A stretch of 64,000 bases of DNA from a virus (IMGVR_UViG_3300032103_000073), one strand, 5' to 3'; shown: positions 26-9,827, counted from the stretch's first letter. The notes: generated by a model from the sequence alone, not told the origin. Made by a program: numbers and translations.

Positions 26-475
26 ATGTTTAAATTATCTGCTACATTTTATTCTGCAATTTTCTTCATCGTAATAGGCATTTTATTTTTTAGCATGTCT
101 CTATCATTTGAATTTGGGACAGCTAGCAACATGGGCCCTGCTTATTTTCCAAGAGTATTAAGCGTAATTTTAGTATTCATAGGAATATTAAATTTAATAA
201 AATCTTTTCTAGTTAAATCAAAAGATAGTGTAGAATATTTTTCTATCAGGCCGGCGATATTTGTAATTGCAGCTAGTATATCGTTCGGATTTTTAATCAA
301 TGTTGTTGGACTTCTAGCATCTACAGCTATATTAGTAGTGTTAGCCAGTAATGCAATTAGGATAGAAAATAAAAAACAAATTTTGTTTTTGTCCTTGCTA
401 TTGTCAGCATTTGCTGGTGTTGTTTTTTATGGCGTACTTAATATGCCTTTTAAATTATTAGCTTGGGGGTTTTAA
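26..475 (+). CDS. tctB: Tripartite tricarboxylate transporter small membrane subunit (TctB family)
   Basis: 4 hydrophobic segments, MGPAYFPR motif, directly upstream of TctA. Confidence 0.8.
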   Translation: MFKLSATFYSAIFFIVIGILFFSMSLSFEFGTASNMGPAYFPRVLSVILVFIGILNLIKSFLVKSKDSVEYFSIRPAIFVIAASISFGFLINVVGLLASTAILVVLASNAIRIENKKQILFLSLLLSAFAGVVFYGVLNMPFKLLAWGF

Positions 476-1984
476 ATGACTCTAGTTGATAATTTATTAC
501 TTGGGTTTAGTGTTGCTTTTACATTACAGAATATAACCTATGCATTAGTCGGATGTTTATTAGGAACACTTATCGGTGTGTTACCCGGAATAGGTCCGTT
601 AGCAACAATTGCAATGCTGTTGCCAGCGACTTATTCGCTGTCTCCTATATCAGCTTTGATAATGCTAGCAGGAATCTATTATGGAGCCCAATACGGTGGA
701 TCTACAACTGCTATTCTTGTAAATTTACCAGGAGAAGCATCGAGTGTAGTTACAACATTAGACGGTTATAAGATGGCACAGTCAGGTCAGGCAGGACCTG
801 CACTATCAGCTGCTGCTATCGGATCATTTTTTGCAGGTACCGTTGGAACTTTAGCTATTGCAGCATTCGGCCCACAATTAGTAGATCTTGCTTTTGAGTT
901 CGGTCCTGCAGAGTACTTTTCATTAATGATATTTGGATTAGTCGGCTCGTTGGTTCTATCATCCGGTTCATTAATCAACTCAATCGGTATGGTAATAGTT
1001 GGTTTGTTACTGGGATTGATTGGCACGGATATTAACACTGGGTTAATTAGATTTTCTTTTGGCGTACCAGAGTTAGCAGATGGCATTAATTTTGTTGTGC
1101 TTGCAATGGGGATATTCGGATTAGCAGAAATAGTAAACAATTTAACAACTAGCTCTTACAATAATAGCATCACTAAAACTTCTAATTTAAAACTTTATCC
1201 ATCTATACAAGATATTAAAAAAATAATACCTGCAATTTTACGAGGCACCGGAATTGGATCGTTGTTAGGAATTCTCCCAGGTGGCACTGCAATGCTTTCT
1301 TCTTTTGCTTCTTATGCCGTTGAGAAAAAAGTTAAGTTAAAAGATAACGAAGAGTTGCTAGGTCAAGGAAATATAAGGGGTGTTGCAGGTCCAGAAGCGG
1401 CTAATAATGCTGCCGCACAAACTTCATTTATTCCTATGTTAGCATTAGGATTGCCTTCTAATGCTATAATGGCATTAATGATAGGTGCTATGACTATTCA
1501 CAATATACAACCAGGTCCGCAAGTTATGACAACAGATCCGTCGCTGTTCTGGGGATTGATCGCAAGCATGTGGATAGGCAATTTAATTTTGCTTGTATTG
1601 AATTTGCCTTTAGTAGGAGTTTGGATTAAACTTCTATCTGTTCCCTATAAATTTCTATTTCCTGCAATTATACTTTTCTGTACAATAGGAGTATATTCTA
1701 CAAGCAACAATGTTTTTGATATTTGGTTGGTTGCAGTGTTTGGCTTATTAGGTCTTATGTTTTTAAAGTTAAGATGTGAGCCAATTCCAATGTTGCTAGG
1801 ATTTATATTAGGTCCTATGATGGAAGAGAACTTTAGGAGAACCTTACTAATATCTAGAGGAGATTGGAGTGTATTTTTTAATCGACCTTTAACGTTGTCA
1901 TTGTTGATAGCGACTTGCATTTTAGTATTGTTTATACTAGTGCCAAGTTTTAAGTCAATTAGGAATAATTTACACGAAGATTGA
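476..1984 (+). CDS. tctA: Tripartite tricarboxylate transporter large membrane subunit (TctA)
   Basis: GVLPGIGP, IYYGAQYGGS, GPEAANNAAA motifs; 502 aa polytopic protein. Confidence 0.95.
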   Translation: MTLVDNLLLGFSVAFTLQNITYALVGCLLGTLIGVLPGIGPLATIAMLLPATYSLSPISALIMLAGIYYGAQYGGSTTAILVNLPGEASSVVTTLDGYKMAQSGQAGPALSAAAIGSFFAGTVGTLAIAAFGPQLVDLAFEFGPAEYFSLMIFGLVGSLVLSSGSLINSIGMVIVGLLLGLIGTDINTGLIRFSFGVPELADGINFVVLAMGIFGLAEIVNNLTTSSYNNSITKTSNLKLYPSIQDIKKIIPAILRGTGIGSLLGILPGGTAMLSSFASYAVEKKVKLKDNEELLGQGNIRGVAGPEAANNAAAQTSFIPMLALGLPSNAIMALMIGAMTIHNIQPGPQVMTTDPSLFWGLIASMWIGNLILLVLNLPLVGVWIKLLSVPYKFLFPAIILFCTIGVYSTSNNVFDIWLVAVFGLLGLMFLKLRCEPIPMLLGFILGPMMEENFRRTLLISRGDWSVFFNRPLTLSLLIATCILVLFILVPSFKSIRNNLHED

Positions 1985-2479: not shown

Positions 2480-2623
2480 ATGAGCAAGAGACAAGACACG
2501 TTCACTAAGGCATATGGAAACATTCCTCGCGAACCTCTGCCTTGGTTTGAGCTAGACCTTGTTCCTTTCCGAGGACTTAAATTTTATTGGTTAAAGTTCT
2601 TGAGAAAATTGCAAGGAAGATAA
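2480..2623 (+). CDS. Small hypothetical protein (47 aa, MSKRQDTFTKAYG...)
   Basis: Read manually; below the ORF-track cutoff. Confidence 0.5.
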   Translation: MSKRQDTFTKAYGNIPREPLPWFELDLVPFRGLKFYWLKFLRKLQGR

Positions 2624-2652
2624 TTGACATAAATAACTTACTTTGCTATAAT
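2624..2652 (+). promoter_or_regulatory. sigma70-type promoter P1 of the RNA operon
   Basis: TTGACA-17nt-TATAAT. Confidence 0.85.
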
Positions 2653-2711
2653 AGATACTTAGTTAGACATTGTTAGCAAAGAAATTTTGTTAGCCAAGGC
2701 AGCAAAAATAG

Positions 2712-2740
2712 TTGACACAAAATAACTAAGCATGTATAAT
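2712..2740 (+). promoter_or_regulatory. sigma70-type promoter P2
   Basis: TTGACA-17nt-TATAAT with extended TG. Confidence 0.85.
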
Positions 2741-2766
2741 ACATGCATACGCTAAGAAATTAGCAA

Positions 2767-2782
2767 GGCTCTTTAAAAATTT
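2767..2782 (+). promoter_or_regulatory. rrn-type boxA antitermination element
   Basis: GGCTCTTTAAAAATTT vs boxA consensus TGCTCTTTAACA, just downstream of P2. Confidence 0.65.
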
Positions 2783-2815
2783 GTTGCAGTTGATAAAATT
2801 ATTGCAACAAATTAG

Positions 2816-2844
2816 TTGACACATATCGATGTGTTTGCTATAAT
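2816..2844 (+). promoter_or_regulatory. sigma70-type promoter P3
   Basis: TTGACA-17nt-TATAAT. Confidence 0.85.
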
Positions 2845-2879
2845 AGAAGCTTAGTTAGTTGCAACAGCACTAACTGAAT

Positions 2880-2895
2880 TGTTCTTTAAAAATTT
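2880..2895 (+). promoter_or_regulatory. rrn-type boxA antitermination element
   Basis: TGTTCTTTAAAAATTT downstream of P3. Confidence 0.7.
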
Positions 2896-2990
2896 AAATG
2901 ATATGACGTCCTTGCAAGACAACACAACGCACGATAACGCTGCCGAGTGATAACAGTCCGTAATCTTGTGAAAGAACACGTAGCAAGGAG

Positions 2991-3073
2991 TCATATAAAA
3001 ATGCACATTAGTTTGAAGCTCCGAAAGGCTATGCACGAGTAGGGTAGTATTGCTTTTGTGTGTTTTTATATGA
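2991..3073 (+). ncRNA. Stem-closed small RNA cassette A
   Basis: 17-bp terminal stem TCATATAAAAATGCACA / TGTGTGTTTTTATATGA (2 G-U), internal hairpins. Confidence 0.6.
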
Positions 3074-3077
3074 TAGA

Positions 3078-3168
3078 GAGTCAATGTTAAAAGTGGGTAC
3101 TCAGAATATCCGCCAGTCAGTTGCAAATGCTGTTCAGCCTAGGTGGACTGTAATAAAAACATAGACTC
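3078..3168 (+). ncRNA. Stem-closed small RNA cassette H
   Basis: GAGTCAATGTT / AACATAGACTC closing stem, 1 mismatch. Confidence 0.4.
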
Positions 3169-3169
3169 G

Positions 3170-3244
3170 TCATATAAAAATACAATAACCTCGTGGTGAG
3201 TGCGAGTTAGGAAATGATTGCCTGTGTATTGTATTTTTATATGA
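3170..3244 (+). ncRNA. Stem-closed small RNA cassette B
   Basis: Perfect 18-bp inverted repeat TCATATAAAAATACAATA around a 39-nt interior. Confidence 0.65.
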
Positions 3245-3254
3245 TTAAGTTCAT

Positions 3255-3339
3255 GCCCTGGTGGCGAAATTGGTAGACGCACCAGATTTAGGTTCTGGCG
3301 CCGCAAGGCGTGACGGTTCGAGTCCGTCCTAGGGCACCA
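3255..3339 (+). tRNA. tRNA-Leu(TAG)
   Basis: Cloverleaf, CCAGA-TTTAGGT-TCTGG, long variable arm, encoded CCA. Confidence 0.95.
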
Positions 3340-3420
3340 TATTGAAATACATTAACTAACCTGGAGTGCGGTCACAGGGCATCGTAAGGTGTGGTAGCCG
3401 TGTTAGTGTATTCCAATATG
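3338..3420 (+). ncRNA. Stem-closed small RNA cassette C
   Basis: 19-bp stem CATATTGAAATACATTAAC / GTTAGTGTATTCCAATATG (1 A.C, 1 G-U), two internal hairpins. Confidence 0.6.
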
Positions 3421-3431
3421 GTAAAGAATAT

Positions 3432-3524
3432 AGTGACGTGGATGAGAGGTTGAAATCGGCACCCTGCTAAGGTGTTTGTCATCTAAACAATGGCACGTGG
3501 GTTCGAATCCCACCGTCACTGCCA
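3432..3524 (+). tRNA. tRNA-Ser(GCT)
   Basis: Cloverleaf, loop CTGCTAA, long variable arm, GCCA end. Confidence 0.95.
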
Positions 3525-3533
3525 AAGTAAAAA

Positions 3534-3609
3534 GCCTGGGTGCGTAGAGAGGTGATACGTCTCCTTTACACGGAGAGCGATACTGGTTCGAGTCCAGTCC
3601 CAGGTACCA
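3534..3609 (+). tRNA. tRNA-Val(TAC)
   Basis: TCTCC-TTTACAC-GGAGA, TTCGA T-loop, ACCA. Confidence 0.93.
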
Positions 3610-3616
3610 AACAAAT

Positions 3617-3690
3617 GCGGGATTAGTTTAATGGTAAAACGAGATCCTTCCAAGTTCAAGTCAGCGGTTCGATTCCGCTATCCCGCTCCA
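3617..3690 (+). tRNA. tRNA-Gly(TCC)
   Basis: Gly-type acceptor GCGGGAT/ATCCCGC, loop CTTCCAA, TCCA end; anticodon stem partly mispaired. Confidence 0.88.
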
Positions 3691-3824
3691 AGTTTATGTA
3701 AGGGACTTTGCAGAATCCTTAAGAATACTAGTAAACCTTTCCCTGCGAGTCTTCAACAACAATGCACATATTATAGTGGTTTAATATTTTATACAAAAAC
3801 TGTGCCTTACATAATTTAATTTTT

Positions 3825-3851
3825 GCTCCGATGGTGAAATAGGTAGACACA
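3825..3851 (+). pseudogene. 5' stub of a tRNA-Leu-type gene (acceptor 5' strand plus D arm)
   Basis: GCTCCGATGGTGAAATAGGTAGACACA resembles a Leu 5' end and stops just before the HNH promoter. Confidence 0.65.
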
Positions 3852-3870
3852 TAACTATGTCTTTTCTTTG

Positions 3871-3898
3871 TGTTTAGTATAAATAAACATAGGAGAAC
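3871..3898 (+). promoter_or_regulatory. T4-like late promoter TATAAATA in the loop of an SD-sequestering hairpin
   Basis: TGTTTA-GTATAAA-TAAACA stem extending over GGAG; TATAAATA at 3878-3885. Confidence 0.65.
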
Positions 3899-3901
3899 AA
3901 C

Positions 3902-4378
3902 ATGATTGATATTACCGAATTTATCGCTCTTAGCAGAGAAGAACGCAGAGCACACTTAAACTTAGAAGACCGTTGTTGCGAACGTGGTGGTAACTCCACT
4001 AATCACAAAGGCGTGTTGGCTCAATACTTAGACACGACAATACCGTCGGGTAGAATCTTATTGTGTCATGCTTGTAATAATAGTAAGTGCAGTAATCCAA
4101 AACACCTATACTGGGGTACAGATTATGATAATATTGTTATTGATGGATCAGAATTTGGAACACATAAAAATCCGTTCGAACGTCGTGTTGAAAAATACGG
4201 ATATGAAAAAGCATCTGCTATGAATAGTAAAGTGATGGCAGGAAACACAAACGGTTCCGGCAATAAAGGTAAACCCAAATCAGAAGAACACAAGAAAAAG
4301 ATTGCAGAAGCAATCAAGAGAAAGTATAATGAAGGTGCTTACACAGATAGTAAGCCTGGAAGAAAAAAGCGACTGTAG
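3902..4378 (+). mobile_element. HNH homing endonuclease with NUMOD3-like tail
   Basis: CHACNNSKCSNPKHLYWGT HNH motif, KSEEHKKKI; stop codon lies inside tRNA-Leu(TAA). Confidence 0.85.
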
Positions 4379-4458
4379 CCGAATTGGTCTAGGCACCAGA
4401 CTTAAAATCTGGCGATTCCGAAAGGGTCCTGTGGGTTCGAGTCCCACCAGTCGCACCA
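4369..4458 (+). tRNA. tRNA-Leu(TAA)
   Basis: GCGACTG/CAGTCGC acceptor, CCAGA-CTTAAAA-TCTGG, variable arm, ACCA. Confidence 0.93.
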
Positions 4459-4464
4459 ATGTTC

Positions 4465-4596
4465 AGTCAGTTAAAAGATGCAGTCTCCATTAACTGACTT
4501 TTAGAAGTTGCATAGAGCTTTAGGTAAACTGCAAGTAGCCCAAATGAATCACTAGCAAAAGTCGTTAAGTCGATGATTGTGGTGCAAGCCCATTAA
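4465..4596 (+). ncRNA. Two-T-loop structured RNA, copy 1
   Basis: Shares a 33/34-nt core and hairpin layout with 8197-8329. Confidence 0.65.
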
Positions 4597-4603
4597 GAAT
4601 TTA

Positions 4604-4680
4604 GCACCGTTAGATCAGTTGGTTAGATCGTCTGCCTGTCACGCAGAAGGCCAGGGGTTCGAGTCCCCTACGGTGCGCCA
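4604..4680 (+). tRNA. tRNA-Asp(GTC)
   Basis: TCTGC-CTGTCAC-GCAGA, GCCA end. Confidence 0.95.
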
Positions 4681-4772
4681 AATATTTGAATAGTTAGATA
4701 AATAGTTTCACGGGGGGGGAGAGCGTAGAGAACGAGTAATTCGCATAAATAAATGCGATAGTGGAGAACTCT

Positions 4773-5279
4773 ATGAATAACGGCAAATACTATACCCCAG
4801 AGTATAAACAAAAGCAAGAAGCAAAGATAGATAGACTATACGGTCCTGTAATAAAGCACAAAAAAGTCTGCCAATGTTGCGGTGAAGAGTTTATATTCGA
4901 AGGTAGATTAAAAACTAAGAAGTATGAGGACGCAAAGTTTTGCTCCAGAAGTTGCGCTAATAATAGGCAATCTTGGTGGAATGACAATGCTACTCATTAT
5001 AGAACAATAGCATTACAGCATCATGATGAAAAGTGTGTTGTGTGCGGGTTTGATAAGATTGTTGCTATTCATCACATAGATGAAAACAGGCAAAATAACA
5101 ATCCATCAAATTTAATACCGTTATGTCCAAATCATCACGAAATGGTACATAGCAAATGGAAAGATGAGATTATTCCTTACATTAAAGAATGGCAACGGGG
5201 GATTGGTATAGTTGGGAACACAGTAGCTTTGCAAGCTTCAGTCAGCGGTTCGACCCCGCTATCCTCCACCAAACACTAA
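4773..5279 (+). mobile_element. HNH homing endonuclease; 3' end reads through tRNA-Ala
   Basis: CQCC/FCSRSC Zn motifs; IHHIDENRQNNNPSNLIPLCPNHH; GGAG SD and ATAAATA at 4745. Confidence 0.88.
5197..5271 (+). tRNA. tRNA-Ala(TGC)
   Basis: GGGGGAT/ATCCTCC acceptor with G3-U70, loop TTTGCAA, ACCA. Confidence 0.92.
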
Positions 5280-5286
5280 ATGTAAT

Positions 5287-5310
5287 GTTCGATCCCGTTT
5301 ACCTCCACCA
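5287..5310 (+). pseudogene. 3' stub of a second tRNA-Ala (T-loop, acceptor 3' strand, CCA)
   Basis: GTTCGATCCCGTTTACCTCCACCA duplicates the end of the tRNA-Ala just upstream. Confidence 0.65.
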
Positions 5311-5316
5311 TTTTAT

Positions 5317-5392
5317 AGCGGGTAGGGTCTGGTCACCACTTCAGTCTCATAAGCTCGGAGCATCCCTGGTTCAAATCCAGGACCCGCATCCA
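5317..5392 (+). tRNA. tRNA-Met(CAT), with a 1:72 mismatch
   Basis: Loop CTCATAA; A1.A72 mismatch; irregular anticodon stem; TCCA. Confidence 0.8.
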
Positions 5393-5465
5393 ATTAACCT
5401 GCCGTGTGAAGGCAGAGGCATTCGCAAGATATAAGTCCTCCCCTATACATAGCACAACGAATTAT

Positions 5466-5542
5466 TCCTCGATAGCACAGTTGGTAGTTGCGCTTGACTG
5501 TTAATCAAGATGTCCGTGGTTCGAGCCCACGTCGGGGAGCCA
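5466..5542 (+). tRNA. tRNA-Asn(GTT)
   Basis: CTTGA-CTGTTAA-TCAAG, GCCA. Confidence 0.95.
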
Positions 5543-5546
5543 AATT

Positions 5547-5622
5547 GCTGGATTAGCTCAGTTGGTAGAGCACTCGCCTTGTAAGCGAAAGGTCGTCAGT
5601 TCGAACCCGACATCCAGCACCA
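5547..5622 (+). tRNA. tRNA-Thr(TGT)
   Basis: Loop CTTGTAA, ACCA. Confidence 0.95.
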
Positions 5623-5636
5623 AAGTTAGATTATTT

Positions 5637-5711
5637 GCTCCGTTCGTCTATCGGCTAGGACACCAGCCTTTCACGTTGGTAAGATGGGTTCGATTCCCAT
5701 ACGGAGTACCA
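5637..5711 (+). tRNA. tRNA-Glu(TTC)
   Basis: CCAGC-CTTTCAC-GTTGG, ACCA. Confidence 0.92.
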
Positions 5712-5716
5712 TGTTT

Positions 5717-5793
<77 letters not shown>

Positions 5794-5860
5794 AGTTTAT
5801 GAGTTCGTCTAGAAACCGGTAAATTGTAGTTTAGTCTACAAGCTCGTAATTAATTTAAAT

Positions 5861-5946
5861 GGAGATGTAGGAAAATTGGTAACCCCAGTGGACTGTAAAT
5901 CCGCCGCCTTATGGCACTACTGGTTCGACTCCAGTCGTCTCCACCA
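5861..5946 (+). tRNA. tRNA-Tyr(GTA)
   Basis: GTGGA-CTGTAAA-TCCGC, variable arm, ACCA. Confidence 0.95.
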
Positions 5947-5985
5947 AATACTAAAATATTTTGGTAAACAAGTTAAAAGAATTTG

Positions 5986-6014
5986 TTGACACAATAAGAA
6001 GTATTTGCTACAAT
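5986..6014 (+). promoter_or_regulatory. sigma70-type promoter for the large-RNA unit
   Basis: TTGACA-17nt-TACAAT. Confidence 0.8.
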
Positions 6015-6133
6015 AGATACATGTTAAGAAATTAACAAAACAGAAAAGTTGTTCGCTGTAAAGAAAACACTCGTGCTAGTCCTGAAAATTTGCGGTAATG
6101 ATTATAATCCGCGAGCATGGACCTGCTAATCAT

Positions 6134-6148
6134 TGTTCTTTAAAAATT
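6134..6148 (+). promoter_or_regulatory. rrn-type boxA element
   Basis: TGTTCTTTAAAAATT upstream of the large RNA. Confidence 0.7.
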
Positions 6149-6162
6149 AAAGCTAAGAATTT

Positions 6163-6279
6163 TCTTAGCATTGTTGAGCAAGTTGATTCTCAAACGCAAC
6201 GACTAGCCCGAACGGGACTTTACTAGTGGGATCTGCAGATCAACTGGCGAAAATGACAGCTTGTTCAACAATGTTAAGA
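6163..6279 (+). ncRNA. Stem-closed small RNA cassette G
   Basis: 23-bp fully paired stem (3 G-U) around a 71-nt structured interior. Confidence 0.6.
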
Positions 6280-6280
6280 T

Positions 6281-7165
6281 TTCAAGGGCAGCTTATTGTC
6301 CTACAGAGTATGGTTCGCCCAGCTTTGTGAAGAATAACTCCTGTGAGGGAGCCAAAGGATGTATGCCTACATAAGTCCGCTGGAAACAGTGCAGATAAGC
6401 AAGCCTGCTCACTACCGCGAGGTAGCGATCACTGATAAGACCGGTGGTTGTAACAGCAAAGCTGATGTAGTGGAAAGAACGCTAGCTTACAAGCCCGCAA
6501 GGGGAACTTGAGTTGGCGGAAAGAAACAGGTGGTGCTGTCTTCACTACAAAACCAATCAGTCAACTGGTATGAGAAAGGGTAGTATATAGGTTCGAGGTG
6601 TTGCAGCCAAGAGCTTGTGTGCAGTTTTAATGGTTGGTGGATATGTATGGTAACAGGCATATACATTGATCGTGAAAGACGACTGAGTAGTCCGCAAGAC
6701 AAAAGGTATGGGTCGTGTTGTATTCTGTATGCCAAAAGCATATGGAGCAATTGGAGCAGCACGAACCGGTAGGTTAAGTAGCACAATGGTAGTGCAGTTC
6801 CCTTTTAAGGAATAGGCTGTTGGTTCAAATCCAACCTTATACAAAAACGCAAAGACTGCTCCTGACAATGTTGAAAGTGGCCTAAAACTGGACCGCAAGG
6901 AATTCAGTTGCTCAAATGCCGCAAGCAAATGAGTATTGATTAGGATAGTTTCGTAAGAGTTTAGCGACCCTGAACTGCTCGCAAGGTAGACGGAACCTGA
7001 ATAGTTGAATAGACATTGTTGTAATAGGAAACGCAACCTATCAAATGCGGCCATGACTCGATACTTGAATATCGCAAGAGTTCAAGTGGATGAAGAAGGA
7101 AAGTTTCCCGCAAGGAAATCATAATCTTCCGAAGACGAGTTGCGATCCCATGTAATCTCAGTGGT
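6281..7165 (+). ncRNA. Large ornate ncRNA, GOLLD-like
   Basis: ~885 nt without a credible ORF, 7 C-GCAA-G tetraloop hairpins, within a phage tRNA cluster; 3' GAAGGAAA..ATAATCTTC..TGTAATCTCAG resembles GOLLD as I recall it (not searched). Confidence 0.7.
6769..6842 (+). tRNA. tRNA-Lys(TTT)-like element embedded in the large RNA
   Basis: D arm GCAC/GTGC, GTTCC-CTTTTAA-GGAAT, T arm GTTGG-TTCAAAT-CCAAC; bulged acceptor, no CCA. Confidence 0.75.
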
Positions 7166-7169
7166 ATCA

Positions 7170-7209
7170 TTATTTCAAAGCGTATTTGGTCAAGTGTGTT
7201 TTGAAATAA
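7170..7209 (+). repeat. Empty member (F) of the stem-cassette family
   Basis: TTATTTCAAAGCGTATTT-GGTC-AAGTGTGTTTTGAAATAA; arms resemble those of cassettes D/E. Confidence 0.55.
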
Positions 7210-7255
7210 GTAGATTACAAGACTAAAGGTATAAATACATAGAAGGAAACACAAA

Positions 7256-7939
7256 ATGTTCTATGTTTATATGCTGTTAGATCCAAGAAAAAGCAATCAA
7301 CCGTTTTATGTAGGTAAAGGCACTGACGACAGATGGAAAGACCATTTGTTAGAAACTGCTGATACTTCTATCAACAAACGCAAGTTCAACACCATTCAAA
7401 AAATCAAAGCCCTTGGCTTAGATGTAGGCGTTGAGTTTGTTCGATACTTTGAAGATGAAAATCAAGCATACGACCTTGAGGAGCAACTAATCGCTCGGTA
7501 TGGAAGAAAGGGTTATGACCCCGATGGCATACTGACCAACATTTGCGAGGATTCAAGACCGCCTAACTGGCATCAAGGACCCAACGCAAGTGCCATAAAC
7601 CAAAAGATTCGCCAAACAAAGTTGGAGCAAGGTAGTTCGCATACTCCGGAATCTAAAGCAAAGATTTCTGCTCAGCTAAAGGGTAAGAAAAAGCCCCCAA
7701 GATCTGAAGCACACAAATTAGCATTGAGCAAGGCCAAAAAAGGCAAGCCGCTGTTAACGCCCTGTAGCGAAGAAACAAGGCAAAAGCGTAGCCAAAATCA
7801 AACTGGAAAGAAAGCATCAAAGGAAACACGGAAGGCAATCAGCGAAGGTCTCAAGGGTAGAGTGTTGTCAGAAGAACACAAAGCAAGGATCAAGGCTGCT
7901 ATGCTAAAACGAAAGTTAGCAAAAGAAAGTAATACTTGA
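7256..7939 (+). mobile_element. GIY-YIG homing endonuclease with NUMOD3 repeats
   Basis: FYVYML...FYVGKG..RWKDH; HTPESKAKIS/SEETRQK/SEEHKARI repeats; TATAAATA at 7230. Confidence 0.9.
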
Positions 7940-7956
7940 GTATTACATTTTTCTGG

Positions 7957-7985
7957 TTGACACAAATTCGTTTTGGACATATAAT
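7957..7985 (+). promoter_or_regulatory. sigma70-type promoter
   Basis: TTGACA-17nt-TATAAT. Confidence 0.8.
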
Positions 7986-8017
7986 ACATACATAGCGTAA
8001 CAAAACAGGAGTTGAAG

Positions 8018-8182
8018 ATGGTCGAAGTTGGTAAAACATACATTGGCTGTCACGATCACGTTGCTAAAGTCACTGCAATTGCAGGTGGCAAAGTTTATTA
8101 TCGTGACGAGCACGGCATTTGTTTTAATCAAGCAATCGACCTGTTTAATACGATTTATATCAAGCGTGGTAAAGCCGTTTGA
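8018..8182 (+). CDS. Small hypothetical protein (54 aa, MVEVGKTYIGCHDH...)
   Basis: AGGAG SD, immediately after a promoter; read manually. Confidence 0.65.
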   Translation: MVEVGKTYIGCHDHVAKVTAIAGGKVYYRDEHGICFNQAIDLFNTIYIKRGKAV

Positions 8183-8196
8183 TACAATGATTTTTC

Positions 8197-8329
8197 AGAT
8201 CGGTTACTGGTGCAGGCTCCGCTAGCTGATCTTTTAGAATTTGCATAGAGCCTTGCGTGACCTGCAAGTAATGTAAGTGAATCACTAGCAAAAGTCGTTT
8301 AGTCGATGATTTAGGTGCAAGCCCTAATA
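8197..8329 (+). ncRNA. Two-T-loop structured RNA, copy 2
   Basis: See 4465-4596; stems covary between the copies. Confidence 0.65.
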
Positions 8330-8406
8330 CTATTATAAAGCACATTGTGGGTGACATAGACTGCACCAAGCATTGGAAGTTTGCGACAGTGTGTTTCATA
8401 ATAGTA
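8328..8406 (+). ncRNA. Stem-closed small RNA cassette D
   Basis: 20-bp stem TACTATTATAAAGCACATTG / CAGTGTGTTTCATAATAGTA (1 A.C, 2 G-U). Confidence 0.65.
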
Positions 8407-8433
8407 ACCGCAGTCAATGCGATACTATACGGT

Positions 8434-8632
8434 GTGTTCAGCATCGTGAGAGGCAAAAGTTGGATACAAGCTGAGAAGCGTTTATTGTGTATGTTCAATC
8501 TGCGTCACTAAATATCTGGTACTCCAGACGGTGATTGAAACTATCAACACAGTAGAGATAAGCAGAGCAGAATGGGAATTGATCACCCTGAACGTTCTAG
8601 TCAGCCAAGTTGTAACGCCGACAACTGAACAC
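8434..8632 (+). ncRNA. Putative ~200-nt structured RNA
   Basis: Closed by GTGTTCAG/CTGAACAC; several internal hairpins; no ORF. Confidence 0.45.
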
Positions 8633-8757
8633 TATTTTAAAGCACATTTGAAACTGTAGGCTCAGACCCGTAATTCAGTATATGGTGGCAACACTATATG
8701 AGCAGGCAGAAATTCCTGCGTGTAGGACGATCCCCGCCAAGTGTGTTTCAGAATAGT
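8631..8757 (+). ncRNA. Stem-closed small RNA cassette E
   Basis: 20-bp stem ACTATTTTAAAGCACATTTG / CAAGTGTGTTTCAGAATAGT (1 A.C, 3 G-U); interior GCAA hairpin. Confidence 0.65.
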
Positions 8758-8761
8758 TTAT

Positions 8762-8838
8762 GGTCGGGTACCAGAGTGTTTAATGGCTCCGGTTGCAACC
8801 CGGTTGATTCGTAGGTTAAAATCCTACCCCGACCTCCA
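8762..8838 (+). tRNA. tRNA-Cys(GCA)
   Basis: GGTCGGG/CCCGACC acceptor, U73, loop TTGCAAC; atypical T-loop TTAAAAT. Confidence 0.85.
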
Positions 8839-8844
8839 AATTAC

Positions 8845-8868
8845 AAAGGCTCTTCGGAGCCTTTTTTT
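8845..8868 (+). terminator. Intrinsic terminator closing the RNA operon
   Basis: AAAGGCTC-TTCG-GAGCCTTT plus T-tract. Confidence 0.9.
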
Positions 8869-8894
8869 ACGACTGCATTTTTATAAATACAAAA

Positions 8895-9827
8895 ATGAAA
8901 AGCCCTATAAAGATCCAACAAAAGAAACCTACTATTAATATATACTGGAAGTTAACCGATCTTTGTAATTTTAAATGCAATTACTGTTTAGATTCTCTCC
9001 ATTCTGGAAATTATGCAACAGGAAAAATTCCAGGTTTTAGTTCAAATAAAGATAACTTATACTTTTTAAATACATTACAGCAGCATGTTAATAACGGGAA
9101 ACACTTAAATTTACAATTTAGTGGCGGCGAGCCTACGTTGCATCCAGATTTTATCCACATGATAAAGAGTATATATTCCGACAACGTACACATCGGAGTT
9201 ATAACTAATGGTTCTCGAGGAGAGGATTGGTGGCAAGAAGCTATAAATTATATCGATACCATTACTATCTCGCTGCACCCAGAATTTACTAACCTAGACA
9301 AAATAAATTCCATCGGAAACTTAATTATTAACGCAAACAAGAATTTAATATTTAACCTTAGCCTTGATCCAACTAGGTGGAATGATGTATTAAAAATGTA
9401 CAATGGTTTAGACGATCATCTCAAACCATTTGTATCCCTGAAAATTTTAAATCATCTTGATACTACAAAGGAAAACTATACATATTCACAAGAACAACAC
9501 GAGTGGATAAAGTTAAATTCAAATAGACCGATGGTGTCTAGTAATAAATTTATAAACTCAACTATTCATTTTAATGATGGAAGTTCAGAGCCTGTGCTGT
9601 TAAGCAGGATAACTTTTAATAAATGGAACAATTTCAAAAACTGGAGATGCAAAGTTTCTAGTCAAAGTTTATTGATCGATTTTGACGGTACGATTTACGC
9701 GGGCATTTGTAAAGTAAAACATTTAGGACACCTTACTAATTTTAATTTAACTACAACCGATGTAATATGCCCGTTTTCTTTTTGTCCTTGCCCTACTGAC
9801 ATTCGTTCTGAAAAAAACATAGAATAA
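8895..9827 (+). CDS. Radical SAM protein with a C-terminal Cys-rich (twitch/SPASM-like) region
   Basis: CNFKCNYC, FSGGEPTLH, CPFSFCPC; TATAAATA upstream. Confidence 0.9.
   Translation: MKSPIKIQQKKPTINIYWKLTDLCNFKCNYCLDSLHSGNYATGKIPGFSSNKDNLYFLNTLQQHVNNGKHLNLQFSGGEPTLHPDFIHMIKSIYSDNVHIGVITNGSRGEDWWQEAINYIDTITISLHPEFTNLDKINSIGNLIINANKNLIFNLSLDPTRWNDVLKMYNGLDDHLKPFVSLKILNHLDTTKENYTYSQEQHEWIKLNSNRPMVSSNKFINSTIHFNDGSSEPVLLSRITFNKWNNFKNWRCKVSSQSLLIDFDGTIYAGICKVKHLGHLTNFNLTTTDVICPFSFCPCPTDIRSEKNIE

Follow-up and report, generated by a model that had tools for sequence, protein, structure and literature searches.

Spacer hairpins with a conserved stem and interchangeable interiors in the RNA-gene arrays of a giant lake phage and related viruses

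Arrays of tRNA genes in phages tend to be viewed as simple lists, and a locus in which a conserved RNA element fills many of the spacers raises the question of what this element is and how it is handled once transcribed. The locus lies in a stretch of 64,000 nucleotides (the window) taken from the minus strand of a 142,045-bp IMG/VR virus record (IMGVR_UViG_3300032103_000073) of an uncultured giant lake phage; as the record is only ~40% complete according to CheckV, the full phage genome must be much larger. Two RNA-gene arrays are present on the same strand, one at window positions 2600-8900 with 15 tRNAs and a second one with 29 tRNAs (locus L001, minus strand), lying upstream of the window at a distance of 9.6-19.2 kb. 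An earlier note on this DNA had described at least seven small RNA cassettes (units A to G) with long terminal stems among the tRNAs of the first array. Judged by the sequence of their arms, units A-E are one family, whereas unit G shares their architecture and not their arms. At least 100 IMG/VR contigs carry members of this family, as does one cultured cyanophage, whereas cellular genomes almost entirely lack them. On balance, the units are best read as transcribed spacer hairpins that are excised from long precursors of noncoding RNA (ncRNA) operons, with the duplex as the cutting signal and RNase III as the likeliest cutter.

The hairpin family and its attachment to tRNA ends

All seven units fold into the terminal stems claimed for them, with coordinates correct to within 1-2 nt, stems of 17-25 positions, z-scores of -3.5 to -6.1, and at most one of 200 shuffled sequences folding as well. 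Defining a long stem as at least 17 pairs with no more than one mismatch, 11 such stems are present at window positions 2600-8900 compared with a mean of 0.43 (maximum 3) in 30 dinucleotide shuffles, an excess of about 25-fold, and the two tRNA arrays (16.1 kb) together hold 21, with 12 found elsewhere in the record (126 kb). Within the arrays, 21 long stems are read on the tRNA strand and 9 on the opposite strand, which indicates that G-U pairs matter. An identity as intrinsic terminators was rejected, since the arms are A+U-rich with the U run inside the stem instead of in a tract following it, and the terminator-like sites called on the plus strand do not include any of the seven units.

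The consensus arms of the family are TACCATATAAAAACACATT ... AGTGTGTTTCTATATGGTA, with a frequent central A.C mismatch, and the shared arm core suspected from the window units proved to be real, with the consensus AAACACATT / AGTGTGTTT. A search pattern composed of these two 9-nt cores only (AAACACATT, 30-60 nt, AGTGTGTTT) matches at least 119 IMG/VR contigs. The stem extends outward from the cores for at least 8 bp with near-identical sequence (TACCATATA / TATATGGTA) in 101 of 128 viral matches; in cellular genomes (596 Gb) this extension was detected for only 5 of the 120 matches to the core pattern, so the cellular matches behave like chance matches. The covariance model of the arms that the earlier note had proposed was built (R1) from 41 cassettes of other contigs with unrelated interiors, none of them from this genome. 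The underlying alignment comprises a 20-bp helix in which 15 of the 20 pairs carry compensatory changes, and the observed covariation was reached by 0 of 500 shuffles; as the alignment rows were picked for pairing, the outward extension constitutes the unbiased evidence.

The stem measures 19-21 positions in 59 of 91 distinct cassettes, and AAACACA / GUGUGUUU is near-invariant, also outside the seeded positions. Among 116 cassettes re-selected by a strand-neutral rule, 106 have U.G at position -2, and ~60% have a non-Watson-Crick pair at position -10, with A.C there in 58. The latter is the mismatch seen at one common position in C, D and E, which corresponds to position 10 of the family stem. 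This strong conservation of arm sequence extends across deeply diverged phages.

Scanning the whole record with R1 yielded nine members, all within the two tRNA arrays and each scoring higher on the sense than on the antisense strand, with nothing outside the arrays at E <= 0.1. Every unit of the window, too, has its higher score on the plus strand, where the tRNAs lie. Units A-E were recovered at 28-52 bits by this independent model, and the second array contributed four clear members at 36-56 bits, plus one borderline, which the original list of units had missed. Cassette A (2990-3074; all units described here lie on the plus strand) has an 18-bp stem, GTCATATAAAAATGCACA / TGTGTGTTTTTATATGAT, around an interior of ~49 nt (fold z -3.5; 28.2 bits, E 1.6e-3, sense above antisense), and cassette B (3169-3245) a 19-bp stem around a 39-nt two-hairpin interior (z -4.5; 38.6 bits, E 9e-6). 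Cassette C (3336-3422), with a 21-position stem bearing the A.C mismatch at stem position 10 (44.3 bits, E 5e-7), starts on the ACCA end of tRNA-Leu(UAG) (3255-3339, plus strand; ARAGORN, Rfam and fold), whose discriminator and CCA form the base of the cassette stem, and stops 9 nt before tRNA-Ser (3432). The stem of cassette D (8328-8406), TACTATTATAAAGCACATTGT / ACAGTGTGTTTCATAATAGTA, likewise has 21 positions and the A.C mismatch (z -3.95; 51.6 bits, E 1.4e-8, antisense 32.6), and that of cassette E (8631-8757) has 20 positions and the same mismatch around an interior of 87-91 nt with three to four hairpins (z -4.0; 31.8 bits, E 2.7e-4, antisense 15.4 bits), stopping 4 nt before tRNA-Cys (8762).

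The direction of the strand-neutrally selected cassettes was assigned from neighboring tRNAs lying on a single strand, and 116 of 116 proved to be in tRNA-sense orientation. Together with the 21 versus 9 long stems by strand and the compensated pairs of the helix, this is in line with the earlier proposal of selection on RNA structure. The 5' arm begins 2-6 nt inside the called 3' end (NCCA) of the upstream tRNA in 76 of the 134 cassettes that have one on the same strand, and ~70 of 144 cassettes with a downstream tRNA end at -4 to +9 nt of that tRNA. C starts on a CCA in this record, as do three second-array members (after the Lys UUU, Thr UGU and Asn GUU tRNAs), while A, B, D and E have their 5' arm after other RNAs. 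When folded with their flanks (tRNA-Leu-C-tRNA-Ser and tRNA-Lys-cassette-tRNA-His), the cloverleaf directly abuts the closing stem (hereafter the clamp) without an unpaired nucleotide between them, the CCA is fully paired, and ~8 unpaired nt precede the next tRNA. The upstream tRNA in the abutting cases is Lys(UUU) in 40 of 80, a 12-fold excess over the 3.3 expected, followed by Gln(UUG) in 9 and Glu(UUC) in 8, counts which come from related contigs fetched via the motif and are not independent samples. Among the 40 tRNA-Lys genes there are 36 different sequences, which share a median identity of 69%, and recent co-inheritance therefore does not account for the link to Lys.

One member is known from a cultured phage, Synechococcus phage BUCT-ZZ01, where it directly follows tRNA-Lys(UUU), the two occupying ON615601 123,301-123,472, and scores 49 bits; megablast and blastn searches of deposited phage genomes returned this phage and otherwise only tRNA matches. 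Rfam 15, applied to the region at the gathering threshold and at E <= 1, detected tRNAs, GOLLD RNA and chance matches only (mir-590 at E 0.71, and plastid and YrlA models placed on tRNAs). No match fell on a cassette interior, and the possibility raised beforehand that the interiors are known Rfam families therefore does not hold. A literature search retrieved no description of the family, which is phage-only and apparently undescribed.

Two further loci resemble the family. An exact consensus cassette occurs on a 1.5-kb contig (L141) binned with a metagenome-assembled genome (MAG) of the freshwater actinobacterial Ca. Planktophila, which is probably mis-binned phage DNA and could hint at a host. 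A hairpin with the core ATTTCAAAACACATT / AGTGTGTTTTGAAAT (R1 30 bits) is found at L039 5807-5892 and at 13 near-identical prophage-derived IMG/VR loci; it lies in an mRNA leader of a prophage-like region containing a C4 antisense RNA and an Aggregatibacter small RNA (sRNA) family, with no tRNA nearby.

Conserved RNAs also adjoin the window cassettes. Cassette A is preceded not by a tRNA but by an RNA of ~110 nt (window 2883-2996) that is 87-88% identical in a distant relative (L127 473-592, minus strand) and has the closing stem ATATGACGTCCTTGC / GCAAGGAGTCATAT; since a GTCATAT segment is common to this stem and the 5' arm of A, the two helices are mutually exclusive there. The same relative carries a homologue of A with a longer interior and an extra tandem cassette. 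The spacer between A and B (window 3075-3112) is 87-96% conserved directly after cassettes at L008 9122-9149, L101 6585-6621 and L023 978-1015, a sequence pattern that suggests another RNA module traveling with the cassettes. Two 85%-identical copies of a structured RNA of ~94-130 nt are present at window 4498-4591 and 8231-8324, the former before tRNA-Asp and the latter before cassette D.

Interiors and processing

Aside from the constant stem, the most distinctive property of the family is the diversity of what it encloses. The 188 cassettes contain 124 unrelated interior clusters, and no two interiors within this record are alike. A scan for interior swapping, as had been suggested, revealed exchange from both sides: the Lys(UUU)-to-His junction is occupied by six unrelated interiors among different contigs, and single interiors recur at different junctions, such as that of this record's cassette after tRNA-Thr, which is found after tRNA-Glu in L017. 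The payload of unit B is 96% identical to those of the L011 and L080 cassettes, and the arms around it differ by five compensatory double changes. Inner hairpins covary within interior clusters as well. The earlier proposal that modular cargo varies within a constant stem is thus upheld by covariation, by the number of clusters, by junction swapping and by the unit B payload. Very short interiors of 9-23 nt also exist, besides the empty unit F.

A proposed role of the payloads as decoys or sponges against RNA-targeting host defenses found no such support. Mimics of a CUUUUAA-type anticodon loop occur in no interior, and a T-loop-like (T-arm-like) hairpin next to the 3' arm is present in only 8 of 170 interiors compared with 1.1 expected, so an anticodon-loop decoy was discarded as a candidate.

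The mechanism that we favor starts from long, promoter-driven precursors of the phage ncRNA operons, which would carry the hairpins as spacers. The stem, of ~19-21 bp or roughly two turns of double-stranded RNA (dsRNA), begins either at the discriminator and CCA of a tRNA or directly behind another structured RNA, and closes a few nucleotides before the next RNA. The clamp would in this way lock the upstream 3' end in a duplex that doubles as the processing signal, most likely for the double-strand-specific RNase III of the host. The short trailer left over would be trimmed back to the CCA, RNase P would then free the next tRNA, and the excised product would be a small hairpin RNA with one of >100 interchangeable structured payloads. 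The identity of the nuclease, the cut site and any activity of the payload are points at which we infer.

Excision as such is a necessity in part of the family. In six contigs (L017, L022, L073, L048, L091 and L037), the intervening sequence (IVS) of a permuted tmRNA gene is formed by the family's arms, which there prolong the tmRNA acceptor stem; since the IVS is absent from the mature two-piece tmRNA (PMC11915505), the cassette in those genes must be excised. Similarly, two neighboring tRNAs can both function only if a cassette that separates the CCA of the first from position +1 of the second is removed. In the tmRNA cases the RNase P site would be inside a continuous helix, which would have to open first. 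The length of the stem fits RNase III, as the dimer of this enzyme accommodates ~22 bp of dsRNA (PMC6212723) and the family mode is 19-21 positions.

Several observations weigh against this assignment. No phage-encoded RNase III was found in the six records examined: PF14622 (RNase III) and dsrm have no match in this record (~40% complete), and PF14622 has none in a further five phage records with cassettes, of which three are complete, whereas it is present in control genomes including Synechococcus elongatus; the host enzyme would accordingly have to make the cut. The arm sequence is strongly conserved in diverged phages, whereas the sequence preference of RNase III is weak, which hints at a sequence-specific partner or some other constraint. 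The preference for Lys(UUU), Gln(UUG) and Glu(UUC) is not accounted for by a generic punctuation role, and cleavage of permuted-tmRNA precursors has been credited to tRNA-processing enzymes, not to RNase III (PMC11915505). Because arm conservation, the mismatched center and the Lys(UUU) preference go unexplained, two other RNA-level accounts stay alive.

According to one of these, the clamp is a folding aid, insulator or gate acting in cis that is not cut within its stem. Stacked on the acceptor stem, it would hide the CCA and delay or order the maturation of the Lys UUU, Gln UUG and Glu UUC tRNAs until removal by RNase E, G or Z, exonucleases and RNase P, the interior being a stabilizing cap. 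Such a role agrees with a stem that starts exactly at the discriminator with no unpaired nucleotide, with a 3' arm that keeps pairing with ACCA and shows compensatory changes where there is no CCA, with the 12-fold excess of upstream Lys(UUU) in 36 distinct tRNA-Lys sequences (median identity 69%), with the existence of a stem without cargo in unit F, and with the reported removal of tmRNA spacers by tRNA-processing enzymes (PMC11915505). It leaves unexplained why, of the five window members, only C comes after a tRNA and A, B, D and E have other RNAs before them, and why payloads are ~96% conserved and internally covarying, more than a filler needs, in phages whose neighboring radical-SAM protein is, among the contigs fetched, at most 57% identical to that of this phage. 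Moreover, nucleases specific for single strands and 3' exonucleases, as established for RNase T, PH and E, do not pass a duplex of 19 bp, so a double-strand cut or unwinding would be needed in any case. We regard this account as unlikely. Less likely still is one centered on the payloads, in which the cassettes make up a library of stable small RNAs, the stem is a docking site for a specific host or phage protein in the manner of Y RNAs, and the array serves as an expression platform. Conservation of arm sequence beyond pairing (AAACACA / GUGUGUUU), a central non-Watson-Crick position in ~60% of members, >100 payload types with covariation of their own and the minority of T-arm-like hairpins by the 3' arm (8 of 170 versus 1.1 expected) would all suit a bound RNA. 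No unit has a Y-RNA-like match in Rfam, however, no TROVE/Ro gene or other candidate partner was identified in the ~40% complete record, and neither the anchoring on CCA nor the empty or very short interiors (F; 9-23 nt) would follow from such a function.

The remaining account operates at the DNA level and takes the arms as ends of a mobile element or as recombination linkers resembling PeSLs (see below) that shuffle segments, with RNA folding being incidental. The arms are indeed terminal inverted repeats, interiors are swapped at constant arms with the same interior appearing at different junctions, homing endonuclease genes reside in the same arrays, and recombination could make use of the ~19 bp of identity at either end. 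Nevertheless, flanking direct repeats (k = 3-8) around 172 cassettes are at control level, giving no target-site duplications; the orientation never departs from that of the transcribed strand (116 of 116); G-U pairs place the stems mainly on the tRNA strand (21 versus 9); the arms change by compensatory double changes around the same payload; and no two interiors in the record are alike. The earlier note had named ends of miniature inverted-repeat transposable elements (MITEs) with target-site duplications as a reading that would overturn its own, and that reading was rejected on the lack of such duplications, the fixed orientation and the 124 interior clusters in 188 cassettes. A DNA-level origin of the stems is thus very improbable, and recombination between the conserved arms is a likely route of payload swapping. 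Excision of a transcribed spacer at its duplex remains the preferred reading.

Long stems around other RNAs and the setting of the arrays

The two remaining window units relate differently to the family. Unit G (6163-6279) has a 24-pair stem, a 67-nt branched interior and different arms (fold z -5.9), and lies between a predicted promoter and the presumed 5' region of a GOLLD RNA. Its R1 score of 21.6 bits (E 0.04) is borderline and derives from structure alone, so its membership of the sequence family was not borne out. Unit F (7170-7209), claimed as an empty member, is an 18-bp hairpin with a 4-nt loop and four G-U pairs (z -6.1) that does fold and keeps the 3' core AGTGTGTTT, whereas the model does not place it in the family (11.7 bits, E 5.7). 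Its arms resemble those of the L039 variant.

Both units flank the GOLLD RNA, whose conserved 3' region is located at 6710-7164 on the plus strand (RF02032, 181 bits against a gathering score of 150). The Rfam match spans these positions only, with G upstream of it and F beginning 6 nt past its end, and ~430 nt of likely GOLLD 5' region (6280-6709) falls outside the Rfam model; a less conserved 5' region is a known property of GOLLD (PMC12286853). A tRNA-Lys(UUU) without encoded CCA (6772-6843, ARAGORN) is embedded within the variable linker of GOLLD, and Lys(UUU) is likewise the preferred tRNA of the cassette family.

Long stems with unrelated arms are also found in the second array, where stems of 20-26 pairs enclose other RNAs. 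A perfect 24-bp stem at L001 15551-15746, minus strand (window -15745 to -15550), surrounds ~150 nt that include a tRNA-like gene (L001 15582-15655; Rfam tRNA 46 bits), for which ARAGORN reads a four-base anticodon (gtaa) and which could be a frameshift-suppressor-type tRNA or a decayed tRNA. Based on G and F around GOLLD, this 24-bp stem and the 20-26-pair stems, these operons generally place a long stem around or next to each of their RNAs, and the conserved-arm family is the most widespread form of this arrangement.

The operons are headed by predicted promoters, identified as matches to the sigma-70-type consensus only. Three in tandem (at 2624, 2712 and 2816, spanning 2624-2844; 12/12 matches each) face the operon of A, B and tRNAs, and single ones precede G and GOLLD (5986-6014; 11/12) and D and E (7957-7985; 12/12), all on the plus strand. 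A motif, (T)TCTTTAAAAATT, occurs at window 2769-2783, 2882-2895 and 6134-6149 and on the minus strand of L001 near 15755 and 15490, tens of nucleotides 3' of the consensus promoters and directly ahead of the structured RNA that opens each operon. Genes for HNH and GIY-YIG endonucleases are scattered among the tRNAs of the arrays. Window 26-1984, adjoining the RNA array, encodes the tripartite tricarboxylate transporter subunits TctB (Pfam E 1e-15) and TctA (Pfam E 5e-151), which are unusual as a pair of auxiliary genes. Inside the second array, long stretches rich in GNRA-like motifs (L001 minus strand, ~15250-14640 and ~10400-10040) have no Rfam match and, judged by eye alone, no convincing coding frame; they may be further large structured RNAs.

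Significance and relation to known systems

The family ties together tRNA 3'-end maturation, the spacer of the two-piece tmRNA and a large pool of small structured RNAs. Its link to Lys(UUU) is of note in view of the PARIS defense system, which cleaves tRNA-Lys and is overcome by a phage tRNA-Lys that rescues infection (PMC11464382): the Lys UUU type is that destroyed by host anticodon nucleases such as PARIS AriB, and this leads to a testable question on how phages deploy replacement tRNAs. A more far-reaching idea, which we hold to be rather doubtful, is that the clamp might be a sequence-recognized phage gate that times the release of the Lys UUU, Gln UUG and Glu UUC tRNAs and at the same time launches >100 small RNAs for host takeover or counter-defense. 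If this combination of gate and payload library were true, tRNA processing would underlie a modular RNA expression cassette of a new class. A tractable system is at hand in S. elongatus PCC 7942 infected with Synechococcus phage BUCT-ZZ01, and the constant stem could be a handle for finding new phage small RNAs in metagenomes.

Among known phage RNAs, T4 rnaC and rnaD (species 1 and 2) are alike in being small stable RNAs co-transcribed with phage tRNAs and, by annotation, beside a homing-endonuclease gene. They differ in being single genes whose predicted folds lack a closing stem of 19-20 bp, and R1 has no match to them (T4 70908-71171), the best score in the 10-kb region being 14 bits elsewhere; they were thus set aside as members and are positional analogues only. 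The RNase III site of E. coli dicF was also rejected as a relative, with R1 scores of 8-9 bits and no BLAST match. Bacterial Y RNAs (YrlA; bound by Ro/Rsr) share a long closing stem with a conserved irregularity and a variable module, which is tRNA-like in a few members, whereas most clamp payloads are not tRNA-like. YrlA (RF02553) matches no unit, its only weak match (22 bits, gathering 69) lying on the tRNAs at 5661-5768, and TROVE (Ro) has no match in the record, which is ~40% complete. The PeSL (promoter-early stem-loop) cassettes of T4-type phages, reportedly described by Arbiol et al. in 2010, resemble the family in that variable segments are flanked by short conserved sequences bearing a stem-loop, which accompany modular shuffling between phage genomes. 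Going by description and not by sequence, PeSLs are set apart in carrying a promoter and flanking protein genes, whereas the clamp arms pair across a small RNA payload, show covariation of the RNA type and are tied to the CCA ends of tRNAs.

The closest parallels are found in RNA processing. RNase III cuts the leader-trailer helices around 16S and 23S rRNA and the R sites of phage T7 early mRNA, and these stems resemble the clamp as duplexes of about two turns, sometimes with an internal mismatch, that are located between the RNAs of one polycistronic transcript and release them when cut. Unlike them, the phage clamp is conserved in its own sequence across at least 100 contigs, starts on tRNA CCA and encloses interchangeable payloads instead of one fixed RNA, and its cleavage is predicted. 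To our knowledge, the described intervening sequences of permuted tmRNA are not a conserved-stem family with variable cargo. They are similar in position and fate, directly following the encoded CCA, ending at the 5' end of the next piece and being absent from the mature RNA (PMC11915505), and in the six phage contigs the intervening sequence is a cassette of the family. The window, in which ARAGORN detects no tmRNA, differs in that its cassettes sit between ordinary tRNAs and other RNAs. Taken together, these comparisons place the cassettes in the known kind of processing and spacer stems, to which they add two new traits, modular cargo and anchoring on the CCA end.

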